Part shown: one piece after another, positions 20,243-51,484 of the stretch | Numbering within the stretch: the first letter of the stretch is position 1 | Layout: every line of letters begins with the position of its first letter | Assembly (NCBI GenBank): GCA_034437215.1 | Contig: DAOTVC010000076.1 | Location: 27,439 to 91,438 of the forward strand | Source: Anaerolineae bacterium | GTDB lineage: Bacteria; Chloroflexota; Anaerolineae; B4-G1; SLSP01 | Length of the DNA stretch: 64,000 bases | Direction: 5' to 3' | Made by a program: the position numbers and the translations under genes | Notes under the pieces: generated by a model | Told to the model about the DNA's origin: nothing | The model's input: only the letters and a program-made list of their open reading frames with translations | The model's database searches: none

Positions 20243-20581
20243 CTACTCTTCCTCGACGAGACGGACGACGGTGGCGTCCTCGTTGGTGCGGAAGACGTAC
20301 TCCTCGCCCTGCACCTCGACCGTCACCTGGTAACCGGGGGTGATGACCTGGGCGCAGACTTCACCCTCCTCGGCGAGTCCCAGGCAGGCGTCGGGCCAGT
20401 CCTCCTGCTCGTAGGAGACGATCTCCACAGCATCCTCGGGTATCTCCAGCTCCTCGCTTAACTGACCACGAAGCTGCTGAATAGGAGCAGGTAAGGGGGC
20501 CTCCTGCCGATTCTGACAGCCGACCAGGAGCAGGGACAACATCAGAGCAATCAACATCCAGATCCCTTTACGTACTAACAT
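20243..20581 (-). CDS. Small lipoprotein (112 aa), hypothetical.
   Basis: Lipobox LLVGCQ. Strong AAGGAGGAT RBS. The 15-bp iteron array abuts its RBS. Confidence 0.6.
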   Translation of the reverse strand: MLVRKGIWMLIALMLSLLLVGCQNRQEAPLPAPIQQLRGQLSEELEIPEDAVEIVSYEQEDWPDACLGLAEEGEVCAQVITPGYQVTVEVQGEEYVFRTNEDATVVRLVEEE

Positions 20582-20597
20582 GGTGGTTATCCTCCTT

Positions 20598-20672
20598 GAA
20601 CTGACGGACAGGGAACTAACGGACAGGGAACTAACAGACAGGGAACTAACAGACAGGGAACTAACAGACAGG
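20598..20672. repeat. 15-bp tandem repeat array, 5 units (GAACTAAC(A/G)GACAGG), immediately upstream of the RBS of the lipoprotein gene.
   Basis: Read directly; units at 20598, 20613, 20628, 20643, 20658. The first unit is degenerate. Confidence 0.95.
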
Positions 20673-20692: not shown

Positions 20693-21910
20693 TCAAGCCC
20701 CGTACTTCCCCAGCCGTCGCGCGTGGGCGAGGGCCAGGGGCATGATCTCGAAGGCCGGGAAGCGCGGTCCCAGACTGCCGGTGACGCACGCTCGCTCGCC
20801 GAACTGCTCCACTCTATCAGGCCGGCAGAACTCCGACCAGAGAAGCACCGGCACGGGGTGCCAGCTGTGATACTTCATCTTGGCGGGCGTCGAGTGATCC
20901 CCTGTCACCACAATCACGTCGGGATGGAGGTCGACGAGGCGGGGTACGAGCGCGTCCGTCTCCTCGATGAGGCTGACTCGGCGGTCGAAGTCGCCGTCCT
21001 CCCCGGCGCTGTCGATCCGCTTCACGTGGACGAAGAAGAAATCGTAGTCGTTCCACTTCTCCTCTAAAAGGTCGAACTCCTCCTCCACGGTGTGGCTGAC
21101 GGGCAGGGCGTCCATTCCGATGAGCTTGGAGACGCCCCGGTACATGGGGTACATGGCGATGGCGGCCGCTTGCAGCCCGAAGACCTCCTGCATGGAGGGC
21201 CATTCGGGCTGCTGGGAGAAGCCGCGCAGCAGTACCATGTTGGCGGGCTTCTCATCGCGCAGGATCTCCCGGACCTGGTCGACGAAGTCGCGCACGATCC
21301 GAGCCGTCTTCTTCGCCTCCGGTGTGGGCAGGGTGGCCTCCGGGCGCACCGGCTCCTCTCCCACCTCCAGGGGATCGGTCTCCGTCACGGCGCTCGAGAG
21401 CTCCGCGCCCCGCAGCACCAGCAGGAAGCGGTACTCCTTGACGGGCTCCATGAAGACCTCCACCTCGGAGATGTCGAGATTACTGCAGACGAGCTCCTCC
21501 AGCTCCTTGTTCTTCTCGGTGGAGATGCGGCCCGCGCGCCGATCGACGACGACGCCCTGCTCGTTAACCGTGCAGAAGTTCCCGCGAGCCGCCACGTCCT
21601 GGGGCTGGAGATCGAAGTCGATGCCCAGCGCCGAGAGGACGCCCCGGCCCACCTGGTAGGTGACGGGGTCGTAGCCGAAGATGCCCAGGTGACCGGGCCC
21701 GCTGCCGGGGGTGACCCCCGTACGCACCGGCTGGTGGAGGCCGCAGATGCCTTCCGCCGCCAGCCGGTCCAGGTTGGGGGTGTGGGCCGCCTCGAGGGCC
21801 GTCTTGCCACCCCTTTCCATGGGTAATCCCCCCAGCCCGTCCATGACCAGCATCACGATCTTGGTGTCTCTGTTTCTCTCGACGAGAGATTTGATGAAGT
21901 TAAGGTCCAT
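20693..21910 (-). CDS. apgM: 2,3-bisphosphoglycerate-independent phosphoglycerate mutase, archaeal type (ApgM).
   Basis: 405 aa collinear with ApgM family proteins (MDLNFIKSL...VTGDHSTP...). AGGAAAGGAGAT RBS. Confidence 0.9.
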   Translation of the reverse strand: MDLNFIKSLVERNRDTKIVMLVMDGLGGLPMERGGKTALEAAHTPNLDRLAAEGICGLHQPVRTGVTPGSGPGHLGIFGYDPVTYQVGRGVLSALGIDFDLQPQDVAARGNFCTVNEQGVVVDRRAGRISTEKNKELEELVCSNLDISEVEVFMEPVKEYRFLLVLRGAELSSAVTETDPLEVGEEPVRPEATLPTPEAKKTARIVRDFVDQVREILRDEKPANMVLLRGFSQQPEWPSMQEVFGLQAAAIAMYPMYRGVSKLIGMDALPVSHTVEEEFDLLEEKWNDYDFFFVHVKRIDSAGEDGDFDRRVSLIEETDALVPRLVDLHPDVIVVTGDHSTPAKMKYHSWHPVPVLLWSEFCRPDRVEQFGERACVTGSLGPRFPAFEIMPLALAHARRLGKYGA

Positions 21911-21947
21911 GCTTGATCTCCTTTCCTGACATGTAGCTTTGTTAACT

Positions 21948-22811
21948 CTACCCACCCTTGATGGAGCCCGCGAGAATACCACGGACGAAGAAGCGCTGCA
22001 GGGAGAAGAAGACGACGAGGGGCAGGGCCATGGAGACGACGGCGGCGGCGGGCAGGAGGTAGGCTTGGGCCCCGAGCGAGTTCACGAGGTTGGCGACGCG
22101 GACGGTGAGCGGGGCGACGCGGGGTGTGCCCCCCAGGTAGATGAGGGCGACGAGCAGGTCGTTCCAGACCCAGAGGAACTGAAAGATGGCCAGGGCCGCC
22201 AGGGAGGGGACGGAGAGGGGGAGGGCCAAGCGTGTGAAGGCGGTGAAGAAGGAGGCGCCGTCGAGATAGGCGGACTCGAAGAGCTCGCTGGGGAGGGAGC
22301 CGAAGAAGTTGCGCAGCAGGTAGACGGCGAAGGGAAGGCCGTAGCCCGTGTGGGCCAGCCAGATCCCCAGGAAGGTCCCGTTGAGGCCCAAGGAGGTGTA
22401 GATGGAGTAGACGGGGACGAAGGTCATCTGCAAGGGGACCACGAGGAGGCCCACGACGAGGGAGAAGAGCAGCCGGCGTCCCGGAAAATCCATCCAGGCG
22501 AAAGCGTAGGCCGCGAAGGCCGCGACGAGGATGGGGATGACGGTGGCCGGGACGGAGATGAAGAGACTGTTGCGGAAGGCGTGGGCCAAACCCTGGGCCT
22601 CCAGCACCGTCTCGTAGTTCTCCAGCGTCCACGTGGTGATGTTGAAGGGATGGGCGAAGATGTTCCACCAGCCGCTCGACCGGATGGCCTGCGGGGGGCG
22701 GAAGGAGTTGAGCAAGACGCCCATGGAGGGCAACATCCAGATAAGGGCAATGGTGATGACTACGACGTGGAGGGGAATTCTACCCAGGAGCTTGCGCATT
22801 TTGTCACTCAT
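21948..22811 (-). CDS. Carbohydrate ABC transporter permease (MalG/UgpE-like).
   Basis: 6-TM permease with an EAA-like loop. Overlaps the upstream permease by 4 nt. Confidence 0.85.
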   Translation of the reverse strand: MSDKMRKLLGRIPLHVVVITIALIWMLPSMGVLLNSFRPPQAIRSSGWWNIFAHPFNITTWTLENYETVLEAQGLAHAFRNSLFISVPATVIPILVAAFAAYAFAWMDFPGRRLLFSLVVGLLVVPLQMTFVPVYSIYTSLGLNGTFLGIWLAHTGYGLPFAVYLLRNFFGSLPSELFESAYLDGASFFTAFTRLALPLSVPSLAALAIFQFLWVWNDLLVALIYLGGTPRVAPLTVRVANLVNSLGAQAYLLPAAAVVSMALPLVVFFSLQRFFVRGILAGSIKGG

Positions 22812-23821: not shown

Positions 23822-25273
23822 TTAGTAGTTTTCCTCGGCGACGCTCTCGATATTCTGTAGAATGCTGTCCAACTGATCGGGGTTCTCCACGTACTCGAGG
23901 ATGCCGGACCAGAAGGCGTCGTTGACGGCGGACGGCATGAGATCCGAGGCGTCGAAGCGTACGACATCGGCCTCGACGAGAACCTCTGCGGCCTGCTGCG
24001 TCAGTTGATCGGGATAGATCTCCGGAGCGACGTTCCGGTTGGTGGCGATGAAGCCGCCGCGCTCGGCCCAGATGCTCTGGGCGTCATCGGTCGCCAGCCA
24101 GCGCATCAGACAGCGGGCTGCCGGCTCGTCGTTGAAGAGCCCGAAGAGGTCGCCCGCCACGAGGGCCGGTGTGCCGTACTGCTCGTCGATGGGCGGGAAG
24201 GCGAAGTAGTCGAAGTCTTCGATGGGCTGGGCGTCAGGGAACTGGTCCTGGATGAAGCTCTGGATGAAGATGGCCTGGCGGTGCATGTAGCAGCCCGGCG
24301 GTTCCTGTAACATGGGATAGACAGACTCACCGAAGCCGGTAGCCAGCACAGCGGTCGTGCCCCCTTGGACCATATCGCCGTCGGTGGCGACCTGTCCGAA
24401 GATCTCCCAGGCATTGCGTACGGCTTCGTCGGTCCAGGGGATCTCGTGTTGCCACCACTGGTCGTAGACCTCAGGTCCCGCAGTGCGCAACATGATGTCC
24501 TCGATCCAGTCGGTGCCGGGCCAGCCGCTCGCGGCGCCGCTCTCCAGCCCCAGGCACCAGGGCGCGTTGCCGTCGTCGATGATGGTCTGTGAGAGCTCCA
24601 TCATCTCGTCCCAGCTCTCCTCGGGGATCTCGTACCCGGCCTCCTCAAAATTAGGAGGGCTGTACCAGACGAGGCTTTTGATCGCGGCCTTCGTGAAGAT
24701 ACCGTAGAGGCCGCCGTCGAAGGTCGCCAGGTCGATCCAGGTGTCGGCGTAGTCCTCCTGCAGCATCTCCATGTCCATGAAGGTGCTCAGATCCACCAGA
24801 TAGCCCTCATCGGCGTACTGGCGCAGCTGACCGGGGCCGGGCAGACCGGCGATGTCGGGCGGGTTGCCGCCCTCGACGCGCGTGGTCAGCACGGCGTTCA
24901 GGTCACGGGTGCCCTCGTAATCCATCATGGCGCCCGTGGCTTCCTCCCAGGGCGCGACCATGGCCTCGAAACTTTCCAGCTCGTCGCCGCCCCAGACGGC
25001 GAGAACGTTGACCGTCTCGCCGGAGATGTCCTCCTCACAACTGAAGGCCATCTCCTCTTCCATCTCCTCCGTCGGCATGGCCTCTTCCGTCTCCTCGGCC
25101 ATCTCCTCCGTCGGTGTAGGCTCTTCGGTCATCTCTTCTGTGGGCTCTTCTGTCATCTCTTCTGTGGGCTCTTCGGTCATCTGCTCGGTGGGCTCCTCGC
25201 CGTTACAGGCGCTCAGGAGCATGCTCGCCACCAGCAGGACGCTGACGAGAACCCAAAGTGTGCGTTTGAACAT
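23822..25273 (-). CDS. ABC transporter extracellular solute-binding protein (family 1, sugar) with lipoprotein signal and acidic EEPTEEMT repeat linker.
   Basis: Lipobox LLSACNG followed by (EEPTEEMT)n low-complexity linker; SBP_bac_1-like body. Confidence 0.85.
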   Translation of the reverse strand: MFKRTLWVLVSVLLVASMLLSACNGEEPTEQMTEEPTEEMTEEPTEEMTEEPTPTEEMAEETEEAMPTEEMEEEMAFSCEEDISGETVNVLAVWGGDELESFEAMVAPWEEATGAMMDYEGTRDLNAVLTTRVEGGNPPDIAGLPGPGQLRQYADEGYLVDLSTFMDMEMLQEDYADTWIDLATFDGGLYGIFTKAAIKSLVWYSPPNFEEAGYEIPEESWDEMMELSQTIIDDGNAPWCLGLESGAASGWPGTDWIEDIMLRTAGPEVYDQWWQHEIPWTDEAVRNAWEIFGQVATDGDMVQGGTTAVLATGFGESVYPMLQEPPGCYMHRQAIFIQSFIQDQFPDAQPIEDFDYFAFPPIDEQYGTPALVAGDLFGLFNDEPAARCLMRWLATDDAQSIWAERGGFIATNRNVAPEIYPDQLTQQAAEVLVEADVVRFDASDLMPSAVNDAFWSGILEYVENPDQLDSILQNIESVAEENY

Positions 25274-25733: not shown

Positions 25734-25824
25734 TCGTAGATCTCTCCTTTGTGTGAAGCCTTTGAATGAATGGCTGTGGCTACAGTGACTGAATTACAAA
25801 AGGGCTCACCTTGCATGACGCCTG

Positions 25825-46885: not shown

Positions 46886-48397
46886 ATGCAGGTCGAAGTC
46901 ATCAGCGGTGAGATTCAGGCCCAGGAGTCCCCCGCCCTGGTCGTCAACCTCTTCGAGGGGGTGAAGGAGCCCGGCGGCGCCACAGGCGCCGTGGACCGGG
47001 CCCTCGGGGGCGCCATCAGCGATCTCATAGCGGGGGGCGATTTCCGCGGCAGACGCCAGGAGATTGCCGTACTCTATCCTGCAGGGGTCATCCCTGCCCG
47101 GCGGATCATCCTCGTTGGTCTGGGCAAGGAGGAGAAGTTCGACGGCGAGGCCATCCGCCAGGCCGCCGCGGCGGCGGCGCAGCGCGCCCTCACCCTGGGA
47201 GCCACCACCATCCACACCGTCGTCCACGGGGCGGGTGCGGGAGGACGCTCCCCGGCGGAGGCTGCCCAGGCGGTGGTGGAGGGCACGCTGCTGGGCCTCT
47301 ACCGCTTCGACGAGTTGAAGACCCAGCAGGAGGAGGAGCGCCCCGAGCTGGAGAGGCTCGTCCTCGTCGAGTTCGAGGCCTCGAAGCAGGAGGCGCTCGA
47401 GCAGGGCGCGCAGGCGGGTCAGATCGTCGCCGAGTCGGTCGCCCTCGCCCGGGATCTCGTGAACCGCCCCGCCAACGTCGCCTCCCCAGCCCACATCGCC
47501 GACGTGGCGGAGAAGATGGCGAAGGAGACCGGGCTGGGCGCGCAGATCCTCGAGAGGGATGAGATGGAGGAGCGGGGCATGCGCCTCCTGCTCAGCGTCA
47601 ACCAGGGGGGTGGCGAGGCCGCCAAACTGGTGATCCTCGAACATAACGCCGACCGCCGGGATCTGCCCACCGTGGCGCTCGTGGGGAAGGGCATCACCTT
47701 CGACACCGGGGGCATCTCCCTCAAGCCCAGCGCCAGCATGGAGAAGATGAAGGGGGACATGGGCGGCGCAGCAGCCGTCATCGGCGCCATGCGGGCCATC
47801 GCCCTCCTCGACCTGCCCCTGCGGGTCGTCGCGCTGACACCCCTCACCGAGAACATGCCCGATGCCCTGGCGACCAAGCCCGGGGACGTCATCAAGTCCC
47901 TCAAGGGGCTCACCGTGGAGATCATCAACACCGACGCCGAGGGGCGCCTCATCCTCGCCGACGCCCTCACCTATGCCGGGGAGTTCGAGCCCGAGGCGAT
48001 CTTCGACATCGCCACCCTGACAGGCGGGCGGATCATCGCTCTGGGCGCGCACGCCGCCGCCGTCATGGGTGACGAGGCGCTGGTCCGGCGCTTGGAGGCA
48101 GCGGGCGAGGCCACCTTCGAGCGGGTCTGGGAGCTACCGCTCTTCGAGGAGTACGGTGACTATCTCAAGAGCGACGTCGCGGACATCAGAAACGTCGGCA
48201 CGCGGGAGGCCAGCAGCATCACCGCCGGCTACTTCCTCGGTGAGTTCCTGCCCGACGAGATCCCCTGGGCGCACATCGACATCGCAGGCCTGGGCTTGGT
48301 GGACAAGGAGCAGCCCTACACGCCCAAGGGGGCCACGGGCTACGGCGTGCGACTCCTGGTCGAGACCTTGCGGCGGTGGGACGCCCCTTCCGGGTAG
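46886..48397 (+). CDS. pepA: Leucyl aminopeptidase (M17 family).
   Basis: NTDAEGRL and VGKGITFDTGG M17 signatures; full length. AAGGGAGG RBS. Confidence 0.9.
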   Translation: MQVEVISGEIQAQESPALVVNLFEGVKEPGGATGAVDRALGGAISDLIAGGDFRGRRQEIAVLYPAGVIPARRIILVGLGKEEKFDGEAIRQAAAAAAQRALTLGATTIHTVVHGAGAGGRSPAEAAQAVVEGTLLGLYRFDELKTQQEEERPELERLVLVEFEASKQEALEQGAQAGQIVAESVALARDLVNRPANVASPAHIADVAEKMAKETGLGAQILERDEMEERGMRLLLSVNQGGGEAAKLVILEHNADRRDLPTVALVGKGITFDTGGISLKPSASMEKMKGDMGGAAAVIGAMRAIALLDLPLRVVALTPLTENMPDALATKPGDVIKSLKGLTVEIINTDAEGRLILADALTYAGEFEPEAIFDIATLTGGRIIALGAHAAAVMGDEALVRRLEAAGEATFERVWELPLFEEYGDYLKSDVADIRNVGTREASSITAGYFLGEFLPDEIPWAHIDIAGLGLVDKEQPYTPKGATGYGVRLLVETLRRWDAPSG

Positions 48398-48416
48398 ATC
48401 TCTACACAACAGCGAC

Positions 48417-48453
48417 GAGAGCGCTTCCCTGAAGGGAGGCGCTCTTCCATTTT
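48417..48453 (+). terminator. Rho-independent terminator after pepA (13-bp stem with wobble pairs, tgaa loop, followed by ccatttt).
   Basis: gagagcgcttccc-tgaa-gggaggcgctctt-ccatttt. Confidence 0.55.
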
Positions 48454-48581
48454 GGGGCAAGATAGCTCTCTACCGCTCCGCCACCGCTTCTCACCTGCAG
48501 AGCGCGCAGTTTCTAAGGCGTCGCTTTAATTTTTTCCACTTCCGGGTATACTGCAGGCAGAGCCCCTTTCGGGGCGTCTTT

Positions 48582-48671
48582 TGTTAGGCAGGCAGGTGTT
48601 AGACAGGCAGGGGTTAGGCAGGCAGGTGTTAGACAGGCAGGTGTTAGACAGGCAGGTGTTAGATAAGCAGG
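48582..48671. repeat. 15-bp tandem repeat array, 6 units ((T/G)GTTAG(A/G)CAGGCAGG), ending 5 nt before the start codon of the MazG-like gene.
   Basis: Units at 48582, 48597, 48612, 48627, 48642, 48657; the last unit (tgttagataagcagg) supplies the AGGA RBS. Confidence 0.95.
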
Positions 48672-48676
48672 ATAGG

Positions 48677-48991
48677 ATGACGCTTGACGAGTTGACCGAC
48701 GCGATGAACCGCTTCGTCGAGGCCATGGGCTGGTACCGGCCCGATTCCCCCTTCGTGCAGAGCCCGCGCAACATCGCCATCTCCCTGACGTTGGAGGCCG
48801 GCGAGGTGCTCGAGCACTTCCAGTGGGGGGAGGAGGCCGTTCCGGAGGATCTGGCAGAGGAGCTGGCCGACGTGGCCCTCTACCTGCTTCAGCTGGCCTA
48901 CCTAACCGGCGTGGATCTGGAGGAGGCCATCGTCGACAAGCTGGCGGTGAACTACGAACGCTTTGGGCCGCAGGAAGACACGGCGGCGTGA
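48677..48991 (+). CDS. MazG-like all-alpha nucleoside triphosphate pyrophosphohydrolase (small, single domain).
   Basis: EAGEVLEHF and EELADVALYLLQLA EExxE-type motifs; 104 aa. The alternative TTG start at 48581 would translate the repeats as (QVLDR)n. Confidence 0.7.
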   Translation: MTLDELTDAMNRFVEAMGWYRPDSPFVQSPRNIAISLTLEAGEVLEHFQWGEEAVPEDLAEELADVALYLLQLAYLTGVDLEEAIVDKLAVNYERFGPQEDTAA

Positions 48992-49683
48992 AGACACGGG
49001 AGGCTGCAAGGAAATCCAACGCGACCTGCATCCTGGTAGTCAGCGACGATGTGGCCCCCTCGCTCTTCAGCGACAATCTCAAGAAGTACGTGGGGACCAT
49101 CGACGTGCTGCTCTCCTGTGGGGATCTGTCCTACTCCTACCTGGAGTATCTCGTCACCCAACTGCAGACTCGCTACGCCTACTACGTGCGCGGTAACCAC
49201 GACGGGCCCGAGTACCGGGCCAACAACACGACGCTGGAGGCGCCGGGCGGTTGGGTCGACGTCGACGGCCGGGTGAGGGAGGCCGAGAAGCACAGGCTGC
49301 TCGTCGCCGGACTCGAGGGCTCCATCCGCTACCGTCCCAAGGCGCCCTACCAGTACACGCAGACCGAGATGTGGTGGCGGGTGCAGAAGCTCGCGCTCAA
49401 GTTGCTCTTCAACTACGCCCTCTACGGGCGTTTCCTGGACATCTTCATCGCCCACTCCCCGCCTGCCGGGATCCACGACGGTCCCGACTGGCCCCACCGG
49501 GGCTTTGAGGCTTTTCGGGGTCTGATGAAGCGCTTCCGACCGCGCCTCTTCTTGCACGGTCACAAGCACCGCTACGGGCCCATGCCCTGGCGTACGGAGT
49601 TCGAGGAGACGGAGGTGGTGAACGTGCACCCCTTTCGCGTGATTCATTGGTACGAGGATGAGATCAAGTATGGACGCCTCTAG
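48988..49683 (+). CDS. Calcineurin-like metallophosphoesterase.
   Basis: GDLSY...GNHD...GHKH phosphoesterase motifs. GTG start overlapping the MazG-like stop (GTGA) is inferred; the ATG-less alternative is uncertain. Confidence 0.65.
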   Translation: MKTREAARKSNATCILVVSDDVAPSLFSDNLKKYVGTIDVLLSCGDLSYSYLEYLVTQLQTRYAYYVRGNHDGPEYRANNTTLEAPGGWVDVDGRVREAEKHRLLVAGLEGSIRYRPKAPYQYTQTEMWWRVQKLALKLLFNYALYGRFLDIFIAHSPPAGIHDGPDWPHRGFEAFRGLMKRFRPRLFLHGHKHRYGPMPWRTEFEETEVVNVHPFRVIHWYEDEIKYGRL

Positions 49684-51484
49684 TGCCAGCGCCGCCAAAC
49701 AGAGTTTCGACCGTGCCCGGTTGAAGGCCTTCTGGAACGCACTGGTCTCGACCCTGACGGGCCGTTCCAACCAGCTTCTGGCCTGGCAGGACGTGCGGGA
49801 TCAGCTCCATATCGGCGGGCAGTTCTACCGGGGCATCCAGTCGGTGCCCCTCGAGAGGATCGTCGGCAGCGTGAATCGCTACCGGGACTTCGACCGGGCC
49901 TTTCTGCCCCGCCAGACCCACACGGAGGCCCGGTGGCGGAACATCAGCAGCGCCTACTACCAGGAGAAGCACCTGCCTCCCGTCCAGCTCTACAAGGTGG
50001 GGGAGGCCTACTTCGTCCTCGACGGCAACCATCGCGTCTCCGTGGCTCGCGAGCAGGGACGGGCGTACATCGACGCCGAGGTCACGGAGGTGGAGGCGCC
50101 CGTCTCTGTGAGCGCCGACCTCGACGCCCGCGACCTGCAGATCAAGGGGGAGTACGCCGAGTTTCTGCGGCGTACGCGCCTCGACGAGCTGCGCCCCGGG
50201 CAGGGGATCGAGTTCACCATCGCCGGCGGGTACCAGCAGCTGTTGGAGCACATCGCCGTCCACCGCTACTTCATGGGGGGGGATCTGGGGCGCTTCGTGC
50301 CGGAGGAGGAGGCGATCACCCACTGGTACGATCACGTCTACCGACCTCTTGTGCAGACCGTCCGCCGGCAGGAGATTCTGAAGGAGTTTCCCAACCGCAC
50401 GGAGGCCGACCTCTACCTCTGGGTGATGGAGCATCTGCACTTTTTGAGAGAGAGCGGGGGACAGATCACACGGGCGCGCGCCGCCAAGCACTTTGCCGCT
50501 CACTACAATGCCAACCTGCTGAAGCGCGCTCTGAGCATCGTCGGTGGGCTCTGGAGCTCCATCGAGGACGTGGGGGAGGCGGAGGCCGCCGTCGACTTCC
50601 TCGTGGAGACCCGGCTCGACGAGCTGCGCCCCGATCACGGCATCCGGGTGAGCCGACCCGGCGGGTACCAGCGGTTGTTGGAGCACATCGCCGTCCACCG
50701 CCACTTCATGGGGCTGGAGCAGCAGCGCTTCATCGCCAAGCAGGAGGCCATCCTCGACTGGTACGACCACATCTACCACCCCATCGTACGTCTGGTACGC
50801 GAACAGGGCCTGACCCGAGAGCTCTCCCACCTCACCGACACGGAGATCTACCTCTGGATCATGGAGCACCTGCAGTTCTTGCAGGAGCAGGGCGCCCACC
50901 TGAGCCACGAGGAGGCGGTGGAGGATTTCATCCGCCACTACACCCTGCGGCCGCTGAAAGAGGTTCTGGACATGGTCCAGGATCTCCTGGAGGTGGGGAC
51001 GGGGCCCGCCGGTGCCACCACCTATCAGAACTTCCTCAAGTACACGCAGCTGGACCGTCTGCGCCCGCAGCACCGGATCTCCACGACCATCATCAGCGGT
51101 TACCGGCGGCTCCTGGAGCATATCGCGGCTCACCGGTACTTTATGGGTATCGATGAGCAGCGCTCCATCTCCGAGGAGGAGGCGGTGATGGACTGGTACG
51201 ATCAGGTCTACCTGTCCGTCGTCCAGGTGATTCGCGACCACCGTCTGCTGCAGACCTTCCCCAAGCGCACGGAGGCCGATCTCTACCTCTGGTTCATGGA
51301 GCACCGGCACACCCTGGAGGAGCGGGGGGAGATGCTGGGGCGGTTGAACCGGGTGCAGGAGCTGACCGACGAGGAGGTCGACGAGCCGCTGGAGCGCGCC
51401 GTGGATGCCGTTCAACAGCTCCTCGAAAAGACGAGCTCCAAGGATGGGCAGCCGGGAGAGGCTGAGGCGAGCGCCAGCGCCTGA
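49670..51484 (+). CDS. ParB/Srx-like N-terminal domain protein with three tandem ~150-aa DUF4032-like repeats.
   Basis: N-terminal YKVGEAYFVLDGNHRVSVAREQG (ParB-like). Three repeats each carry RLDELRP...GYQ(Q/R)LLEHIA(V/A)HR(Y/H)FMG...WYD(H/Q)(V/I)Y...TE(A/T)(D/E)(L/I)YLW(V/I/F)MEH. The DUF4032 naming is from memory of the motif and is inference. Confidence 0.7.
   Translation: MDASSASAAKQSFDRARLKAFWNALVSTLTGRSNQLLAWQDVRDQLHIGGQFYRGIQSVPLERIVGSVNRYRDFDRAFLPRQTHTEARWRNISSAYYQEKHLPPVQLYKVGEAYFVLDGNHRVSVAREQGRAYIDAEVTEVEAPVSVSADLDARDLQIKGEYAEFLRRTRLDELRPGQGIEFTIAGGYQQLLEHIAVHRYFMGGDLGRFVPEEEAITHWYDHVYRPLVQTVRRQEILKEFPNRTEADLYLWVMEHLHFLRESGGQITRARAAKHFAAHYNANLLKRALSIVGGLWSSIEDVGEAEAAVDFLVETRLDELRPDHGIRVSRPGGYQRLLEHIAVHRHFMGLEQQRFIAKQEAILDWYDHIYHPIVRLVREQGLTRELSHLTDTEIYLWIMEHLQFLQEQGAHLSHEEAVEDFIRHYTLRPLKEVLDMVQDLLEVGTGPAGATTYQNFLKYTQLDRLRPQHRISTTIISGYRRLLEHIAAHRYFMGIDEQRSISEEEAVMDWYDQVYLSVVQVIRDHRLLQTFPKRTEADLYLWFMEHRHTLEERGEMLGRLNRVQELTDEEVDEPLERAVDAVQQLLEKTSSKDGQPGEAEASASA

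Follow-up and report, generated by a model that had tools for sequence, protein, structure and literature searches.

When a short sequence is repeated head to tail immediately in front of a ribosome-binding site, is it a set of regulatory sites or merely a local repeat? The question is raised by a 64-kb stretch of DNA (64,000 nucleotides, hereafter the window) in which two unrelated genes, on opposite strands, are each preceded by a tandem array of 15-bp units. The proteins encoded in the window place its source in the Anaerolineae, phylum Chloroflexota. Its G+C content is 64%; the segment 60001-64000 has 0.54 against the window mean of 0.64 and may be foreign or otherwise atypical DNA. An earlier note on this DNA had called the arrays iterons and favoured the idea that they are iterated binding sites for a regulator. 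Here the arrays are compared with orthologous loci, with other assemblies of the same species and with known classes of repeat.

Anatomy of the two arrays

The first array (array 1) lies in front of a MazG-like gene. The features of this locus are given below in window coordinates.

46886-48397, pepA gene (M17 aminopeptidase), upstream of array 1
48418-48445, plus strand, hairpin followed by a T-run past pepA, the likely pepA terminator (read from sequence)
48547-48552, plus strand, TATACT, a promoter-like -10 hexamer (putative function), lying in GGGTATACT downstream of a T/A-rich tract
48559-48579, plus strand, hairpin AGAGCCCC-UUUC-GGGGCGUCU and a U-run behind it, where the transcript is predicted to have its 5' end (terminator-like match, and folds)
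48582-48671, plus strand, array 1, six 15-bp units with consensus TGTTAGACAGGCAGG
48657-48671, plus strand, the unit of array 1 nearest the ribosome-binding site, TGTTAGATAAGCAGG, and the one closest to the single copy of relatives
48669-48676, plus strand, ribosome-binding region AGGATAGG, overlapping the final 3 nt of array 1 (read from sequence)
48677-48991, plus strand, MazG-like nucleotide pyrophosphohydrolase gene, 104 aa (Pfam PF12643, E 1e-08)
48988-49683, plus strand, metallophosphoesterase gene with a GTG start (Pfam PF00149)
49658-51484, plus strand, gene for a DUF4032 protein, third in the operon, with a 26-nt overlap with the previous gene (Pfam PF13224; synteny in the closest relative, L122)

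The six-unit, 15-bp anatomy described in the earlier note was recovered by Tandem Repeats Finder at exactly 48582-48671 (period 15, 6.0 copies, 90% matches, score 145, consensus TGTTAGACAGGCAGG) and also by a mismatch-tolerant search and by alignment. The units run in the order TGTTAGGCAGGCAGG, TGTTAGACAGGCAGG, GGTTAGGCAGGCAGG, TGTTAGACAGGCAGG, TGTTAGACAGGCAGG, TGTTAGATAAGCAGG. Searching the window with the unit and allowing up to three mismatches gave 8 matches where 1.07 were expected, a number reached in none of 100 shuffles; six of the eight form the contiguous array, and the other two are scattered and carry 3 mismatches. As had been claimed, the array ends 5 nt (ATAGG) before the MazG-like ATG at 48677 and its final unit supplies the AGG of the AGGA Shine-Dalgarno sequence. 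The claim that it forms the entire 5' leader was overstated, since the -10-like TATACT and a conserved hairpin lie upstream of it; if transcription begins about 7 nt past the -10 box, array 1 would account for about 90 of about 117 leader nucleotides.

The TATACT box was missed by a consensus promoter scan because its -35 region is weak. The hairpin at 48418-48445, which overlaps weak hairpin-type Rfam matches at 48416-48446, likely separates the MazG-like transcript from pepA. Downstream, the GTG start of the metallophosphoesterase gene overlaps the MazG-like stop codon (GTGA), which places this gene in the MazG-like operon.

The second array (array 2) precedes a gene for a small lipoprotein-like protein, on the other strand.

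20693-21982, minus strand, cofactor-independent phosphoglycerate mutase gene (apgM type; Pfam PF10143, PF01676)
20598-20672, minus strand, array 2, five 15-bp units, CCTGTCTGTTAGTTC in gene orientation
20582-20597, minus strand, AAGGAGGATAACCACC, the Shine-Dalgarno sequence (AAGGAGG) and spacer of the lipoprotein gene, abutting array 2 and kept in six orthologous contigs (L132-L137)
20243-20581, minus strand, small lipoprotein-like gene, 112 aa, with a signal peptide, no Pfam family, and homologs found by search

Tandem Repeats Finder and the sequence context bore out a second, five-copy array abutting the lipoprotein ribosome-binding site (period 15, 5.0 copies, 96% matches, score 129, consensus GAACTAACAGACAGG), as did a search and alignment. 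Its unit had 6 matches in the window against 0.81 expected, a number reached in 1 of 100 shuffles; the one match outside the array is scattered and has 3 mismatches. In array 2 the two gene-proximal units are degenerate, with CCGTTAG and CCGTCAG. In the 112-aa product we take the sequence LVGC to be the lipobox. The mutase gene is the co-directional upstream neighbour of the lipoprotein gene, so that array 2 occupies a 111-nt intercistronic gap.

No other intergenic array in the window comes near arrays 1 and 2 in strength. Comparable repeat scores occur only at 25048-25199, where nested 12-, 24- and 39-bp repeats at the 5' end of a gene for a substrate-binding protein (SBP_bac_1) (as called in L120, a contig of the same species described below) probably encode a repetitive linker past a lipoprotein signal.

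Orthologous loci and same-species assemblies

The closest ortholog of the MazG-like protein (P0001) is 93% identical in amino acid sequence and about 90% in nucleotide sequence. It belongs to an operon of the same three genes and was found on two contigs (L122 and L123), each from a different JGI metagenome sample. Upstream of its start codon, L122 reads CGCTTTAACTTTTCCCACTTCCGGGTATACTGCGTGCAGAGCCCCTTCCGGGGCGTCTTTTT-TGTTAGATAGGCAGG-ATAGG-ATG; the -10-like box and the hairpin of the window recur here, together with exactly one unit. Aligned with L122, the window carries a clean 75-nt insertion corresponding to five units, and the same 75 nt are absent from L130, a contig of the lineage with 83% protein identity. 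In that lineage (L130 and L131) GGTATACT and the hairpin are kept, the stem in L130 showing a compensatory change from C:G to G:C, and a single TTTAGGGAAGCAGAGGATT precedes the ATG. The ribosome-binding region AGGATAGG of the window aligns with GGCAGGATAGG in L122 and GCAGAGGATT in L130. In the 87% lineage (L124-129) TATACT lies 8 nt before the MazG-like ATG and the gene looks leaderless, and in the 79% lineage (L149-153, from five samples, with pepA upstream as in the window) there is an unrelated 43-nt leader. Thus, no array precedes the MazG-like gene in any of the four related lineages (93, 87, 83 and 79% protein identity), all of which keep (G)TATACT upstream of it, and the order of the MazG-like and metallophosphoesterase genes is the same in L122, L130 and L149.

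Two further observations concern this region. In the regions that include (G)TATACT (48547-48579 of the window, ~737-775 of L122, ~3945-3976 of L130, ~3980-4000 of L124 and ~1450-1460 of L149), three types of leader follow this box: a hairpin with a Shine-Dalgarno sequence (window, L122, L130), the leaderless-looking arrangement (L124-129) and the unrelated 43-nt leader (L149-153). Between the pepA terminator and the MazG promoter, L122 has extra AT-rich sequence relative to the window (416-700 of L122), flanked by an 8-nt inverted repeat (TAACCGCA/TGCGGTTA). This may be a small insertion element, but a MITE-like insertion was considered and rejected, as the 8-nt inverted repeat was all that was seen and the repeat finder gave no confirmation.

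At the second locus the nearest ortholog of the lipoprotein (P0122) is 79% identical in amino acid sequence with flanks of 88-89% nucleotide identity, and the order of genes (mutase, lipoprotein, Usp, GH94 gene) is the same as in the window. This locus is identical or nearly so in six independent contigs (L132-137), none of which carries an array. The gap between the mutase and lipoprotein genes is 48 nt, against 111 nt in the window, and reads TGA-TTGTAGTGCTGATTAGGGTAGTTAGCTAGTTC-AAGGAGGGTAACCACC-ATG; in L132 it ends GTTAGCTAGTTC-AAGGAGG, with one GTTAG..TAGTTC copy beside the Shine-Dalgarno sequence. By alignment with L132, array 2 adds 63 nt.

The two arrays share a further property, in that the unit nearest the gene is the most divergent from the array consensus and the more uniform units lie upstream. 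The gene-proximal unit of array 1 is within 1 nt of the single copy of L122, and that of array 2 is the unit that aligns with the L132 copy. Since the orthologs carry a single copy or none, both arrays are best described as species-specific amplifications of about 15 nt adjoining the ribosome-binding site. The ancestral Shine-Dalgarno sequence and start codon are intact at both loci, and remained untouched because the gene-proximal unit stayed ancestral-like. The absence of arrays from orthologous positions at both loci, which the earlier note had itself named among the findings that would count against its proposal, does not agree with conserved iterated binding sites.

A second source of assembled sequence from the same species was available in the MAG GCA_046541445.1 (contig L120) and the Logan assembly of run SRR19844289 (L121). 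Over 20,339 nt L120 is 99.96% identical to the window, with 7 mismatches, one of them within the fourth unit of array 2. Both assemblies give array 2 five units. At array 1, a MAG contig (L146) and a Logan contig (L147) both stop inside the array and agree with each other there: 185 nt upstream are identical to the window, followed by TGTTAGACAGGCAGG-TGTTAGGCAGGCAGG-TGTTAG. Writing TGTTAGACAGGCAGG as A and TGTTAGGCAGGCAGG as G, the unit order is therefore A,G in these contigs against G,A,G',A,A,T in the window, whose third unit (G') has GGTTAGG. A further Logan contig begins within array 1 and agrees with the last two units of the window. The unit order of array 1 and one base of array 2 thus differ between assemblies that are 99.96% identical, differences that could partly be assembly error in a repeat, and no copy-number difference between the assemblies was resolved at either array. 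The interior of array 1 either differs between assemblies or defies short-read assembly, and in both cases its behaviour fits that of an unstable repeat. Exact-protein look-ups with the MazG-like protein (104 and 136 aa) and the DUF4032 protein gave no match; for the MazG-like protein at least, the probable reason is the breaking of contigs inside array 1, as judged from look-ups with pepA and the metallophosphoesterase.

A weaker repeat elsewhere in the window may be mentioned here. On the minus strand at 25746-25770 an imperfect 13-nt direct repeat of 1.9 copies (CTTCAYWCAAAGG) abuts the ribosome-binding site AAAGGAGAG of a 90-aa gene; it is absent in the ortholog on L133, holds one of the seven mismatches between the window and L120, and may be due to chance.

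Likeness of the units and tests for sequence-specific function

The statement that TGTTAG and AGACAGG are common to both units was confirmed; the heptamer is shared on the same DNA strand and the hexamer on opposite strands. In simulations, 2% of random units shared a 7-mer on the same DNA strand (p ~0.02), and 0.04-0.09% shared both a 7-mer and a 6-mer on the opposite strand (p ~0.0004-0.0009), so the two units are more alike than expected by chance (p about 0.001-0.02). The genes are encoded on opposite strands, and their mRNA leaders are accordingly complementary to each other in register. The intermolecular duplex predicted for the arrays has a free energy of -77 kcal/mol with a net gain of -55 kcal/mol, values matched by 2-3% of unit-shuffled arrays.

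Folding of the leaders gave no sign of significant structure: the leader of locus 1 (-41.2 kcal/mol, z -1.17) and that of locus 2 (z +1.32) fold no better than shuffles, and the RNA of array 2 alone (-4.8 kcal/mol over 75 nt) is essentially unstructured. When the window was compared with Rfam, only a tRNA elsewhere reached the gathering score, with chance-level matches near array 1 and none near array 2. The scattered 3-mismatch matches were the only further copies of the units in the 64-kb window. Outside the arrays it holds 3 occurrences of TGTTAG/CTAACA and 3 of AGACAGG/CCTGTCT, against ~14 and ~8 estimated from base composition, and since both counts fall below the estimate there is no dispersed set of single sites in the window. 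A search of metagenome contigs with a 19-mer around the -10 box (CCACTTCCGGGTATACTGC) gave only 5 matches, all unrelated and coding, and a search of viral sequences for both array junctions gave none.

Several specific candidates were considered and rejected. A LexA box was suggested by the lexA gene upstream of pepA, but the GAAC of array 2 is a direct repeat without the GAAC-N4-GTTC palindrome. The repeated units contain neither the GGA nor the (ARN)n pattern of CsrA or Hfq sites. A two-tetrad G-quadruplex is possible on paper in array 1 and inapplicable to array 2, and as an internal promoter within the unit TG-T-TAGACA would make a poor extended -10.

Origin of the arrays and alternative explanations

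We consider that both arrays are young, species-specific minisatellites (VNTRs) rather than conserved regulatory sites, a reading to which we assign a probability of about 70%. In one Anaerolineae species, a segment of about 15 nt immediately preceding the ribosome-binding site would have been amplified head to tail at two unrelated genes, most likely by replication slippage or unequal recombination, so that one ancestral copy became six at the MazG-like gene and five at the lipoprotein gene. As part of the same reading the arrays would probably mutate faster than their flanks. For locus 1 the conserved -10-like box and 5' hairpin, and for locus 2 the 111-nt gap between co-directional genes, lead us to infer that both arrays are transcribed: array 1 would form a weakly structured 90-nt extension between the 5'-terminal hairpin and the ribosome-binding site, and array 2 a 63-nt extension of the apgM-lipoprotein intercistronic spacer. 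The arrays would then have no conserved sequence-specific function, and their likely effect would be a shift in leader length and composition, through which translation or mRNA stability might at most change quantitatively.

The proposal favoured in the earlier note, that the units are sites for a sequence-specific regulator binding DNA or RNA at TGTTAG or AGACAGG, would account for motif sharing beyond chance and for the same period at two loci. We regard this as very improbable, because none of the relatives examined has an array, neither motif is enriched in the remainder of the window and the leaders fold like shuffles. In addition, the AGACAGG of array 1 is derived: GATAGG stands in its place in the single copy of L122, and GATAAG in the last unit of array 1 in the window. 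The orientation of the shared hexamer relative to the heptamer is reversed between the two arrays. With contiguous units of 15 bp, each site lies 1.4 helical turns from the next and faces another side of the DNA, a poor arrangement for cooperative binding along one face. The label "iteron" does not fit, as there is no replication context: no rep gene or origin features were seen, the neighbours are pepA, MazG-like, metallophosphoesterase, apgM, lipoprotein and Usp genes, and chromosomal synteny is kept in relatives. The exclusion of CRISPR holds, since the units are contiguous and without spacers. A pair of complementary leader RNAs, in which AGACAGG of array 1 pairs with CCUGUCU of array 2 every 15 nt and so links the two operons, draws on the predicted duplex described above; the post hoc p of ~0.02 is weak, however, purine-rich and pyrimidine-rich arrays pair readily anyway, the variant units show no co-variation between the arrays, the genes have no functional link and both arrays are missing in relatives, all of which makes such a pair highly unlikely. 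The likeness of the units, taken with their common period and their common position next to a ribosome-binding site, could still mean a shared cause beyond neutral slippage, and there is a small chance that this is a factor, an RNA-RNA interaction or a biased mutational process. That the arrays are two members of a species-specific system, with in-register complementary leaders that could offer sites for a factor and with more such arrays possibly lying elsewhere, seems to us improbable. Should the similarity of the units prove not to be accidental, a directed process or a factor that makes or exploits leader repeats would be indicated.

A different possibility is that the arrays are VNTRs that tune expression adaptively, the gain or loss of units altering leader length, and hence translation or mRNA stability, with the variability itself under selection. 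Their differences between near-identical assemblies, their position exactly at the ribosome-binding site and the precedent of the Haemophilus influenzae hmw1A (ATCTTTC)n 5'-UTR repeat (PMC12721329) speak for this, but no copy-number difference was resolved and array 2 has five units in both assemblies. The contig breaks inside array 1 would agree with heterogeneous copy numbers within a population, though they are no proof of it. Array 1 is placed neither to shift a reading frame nor to alter -35/-10 spacing: its units have a length divisible by 3, and it is situated past the -10-like box, outside the ORF and the promoter spacer, so it is no simple on/off switch. No long hairpin of the hmw kind is predicted, and MazG-like enzymes and a small lipoprotein are atypical contingency genes; on balance we think adaptive tuning unlikely, if by no means far-fetched. 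It is barely credible that array 1 is coding. Translation from the TTG at 48581, or from an in-frame GTG within the unit, would add a (QVLDR)n extension to the N-terminus of the MazG-like protein; the frame is open throughout the array and in phase with the ATG, and a gene caller extended the gene through the array on a truncated contig. Two of the three unit frames are open anyway, however, the TTG has no ribosome-binding site and directly follows the hairpin, the GTGs lie only 0-3 nt past AGG motifs, and the closest relative has one unit only. None of 30 inspected homologs has the repeat, and those of the length of the window protein begin MTLDELT or MTLEELT. The (QVLDR)n frame and the (RELTD)n frame that the earlier note reported through array 2 both exist as mechanical ORFs, the latter running antisense to real genes. 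We likewise give almost no credence to arrays or copy numbers produced by the assembler: short-read contigs do break inside array 1, but at least 3 to 5 units with consistent flanks are present in independent assemblies (the window, and the MAG and Logan contigs of the second source). The number of copies given for array 1 may nevertheless be inexact.

The minisatellite reading agrees with what is known of bacterial intergenic minisatellites and VNTRs, such as those used for MLVA typing in Xanthomonas and Mycobacterium. As in those, the units are non-coding, at least 10 bp long (within the 10-100 bp range) and head to tail, and are most diverged at the edge of the array, and they are lineage-specific, with one unit in L122/L123 and no array in L124-131, L149-153 or L132-137. 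The differences seen here between near-identical assemblies may correspond to the variation of such repeats between near-identical genomes. Unlike typical VNTRs, both arrays lie exactly at a ribosome-binding site and share a period and part of their sequence. Plasmid and phage iterons are also directly repeated short units, but typical iterons are ~17-22 bp and spaced in helical phase, whereas the units here are 15 bp and contiguous, and the arrays are not kept among relatives. Mycobacterial interspersed repetitive units (MIRU) resemble array 2 in forming tandem units in the intercistronic gaps of operons; their units are 40-100 bp and dispersed at many loci, whereas those here are 15 bp with no further copies in the 64-kb window, and the small ORFs of MIRU that overlap the flanking stop and start codons were not seen at the arrays. 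In H. influenzae the expression of hmw1A falls with the number of (ATCTTTC)n repeats in its 5'-UTR by way of a long hairpin and RNase III processing (PMC12721329). The hmw1A/hmw2A repeat is like the present arrays in being a tandem repeat in a 5' leader upstream of the ribosome-binding site (where the arrays are presumed to be transcribed), but it depends on cleavage by RNase III and on a long hairpin, one arm of which is G-rich (PMC12721329); nothing comparable to this structure is predicted here. The hmw unit is 7 nt in 11 or more copies against 15 nt in 5-6 copies here, and the genes here do not encode pathogen surface adhesins. The array loci are not members of the hmw kind and may at most be loosely analogous to it.

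In practice the consequences are modest. Short-read assemblies of this uncultured Anaerolineae break at the arrays, which could serve as strain-typing markers. The arrays also amount to a natural experiment, in which a 75-nt or 63-nt insertion lies between a 5' element and the ribosome-binding site and its effect on expression could be followed. More generally they advise caution in taking species-specific repeats for regulatory sites, and orthologous loci should be compared first.

Arrays of similar form are widespread. A search of genome contigs for (TGTTAG N9)x3 gave at least 119 generic arrays, in all phyla; this genome was not among the matches listed. By a crude count that missed true cases such as L007 and L032, 6 of 59 non-coding 15-bp arrays abutted gene starts, against 8% of random positions. 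A near-identical 15-mer array, CTGTTAGRCTGTAGR, in which an 8-mer alternates with a 7-mer, is present in unrelated phyla (Firmicutes, Lentisphaerae, Ignavibacteria, Desulfobacterales and Bacteroidales). Arrays of this type were located as follows.

L007, 6044-6091, CTGTTAGRCTGTAGR-type array, abutting GGAGG..ATG
L049, 4595-4691, CTGTTAGRCTGTAGR-type array, ending 17 nt before an ATG
L101, 624-756, CTGTTAGRCTGTAGR-type array
L081, 1995-2054, CTGTTAGRCTGTAGR-type array
L086, 4178-4221, CTGTTAGRCTGTAGR-type array
L022, 407-469, CTGTTAGRCTGTAGR-type array

In another Anaerolineae MAG (L032, 7080-7215) a 15-bp array of 9.1 copies, ATCCTAACATTCCGT, stops 28 nt short of the ATG of a gene whose product has a signal-peptide-like N-terminus and whose start codon is preceded by GGAGG; the array has CTAACA on the sense strand, the opposite orientation to array 2. 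Four Bacteroidota contigs (L078, L084, L093 and L095) carry TTGTTAGTTACAAnn arrays that end at TAnnTTTG, a few nucleotides before an ATG; we take this sequence to resemble the Bacteroidetes -7 promoter box, and the TTGTTAGTTACAAnn repeats may sit in promoters. On a more distant Chloroflexota contig (L138, 4423-4646) a 22-bp array of 10 copies, AAAGATAAGGCTTAGTTTTCAC, lies between convergent genes.
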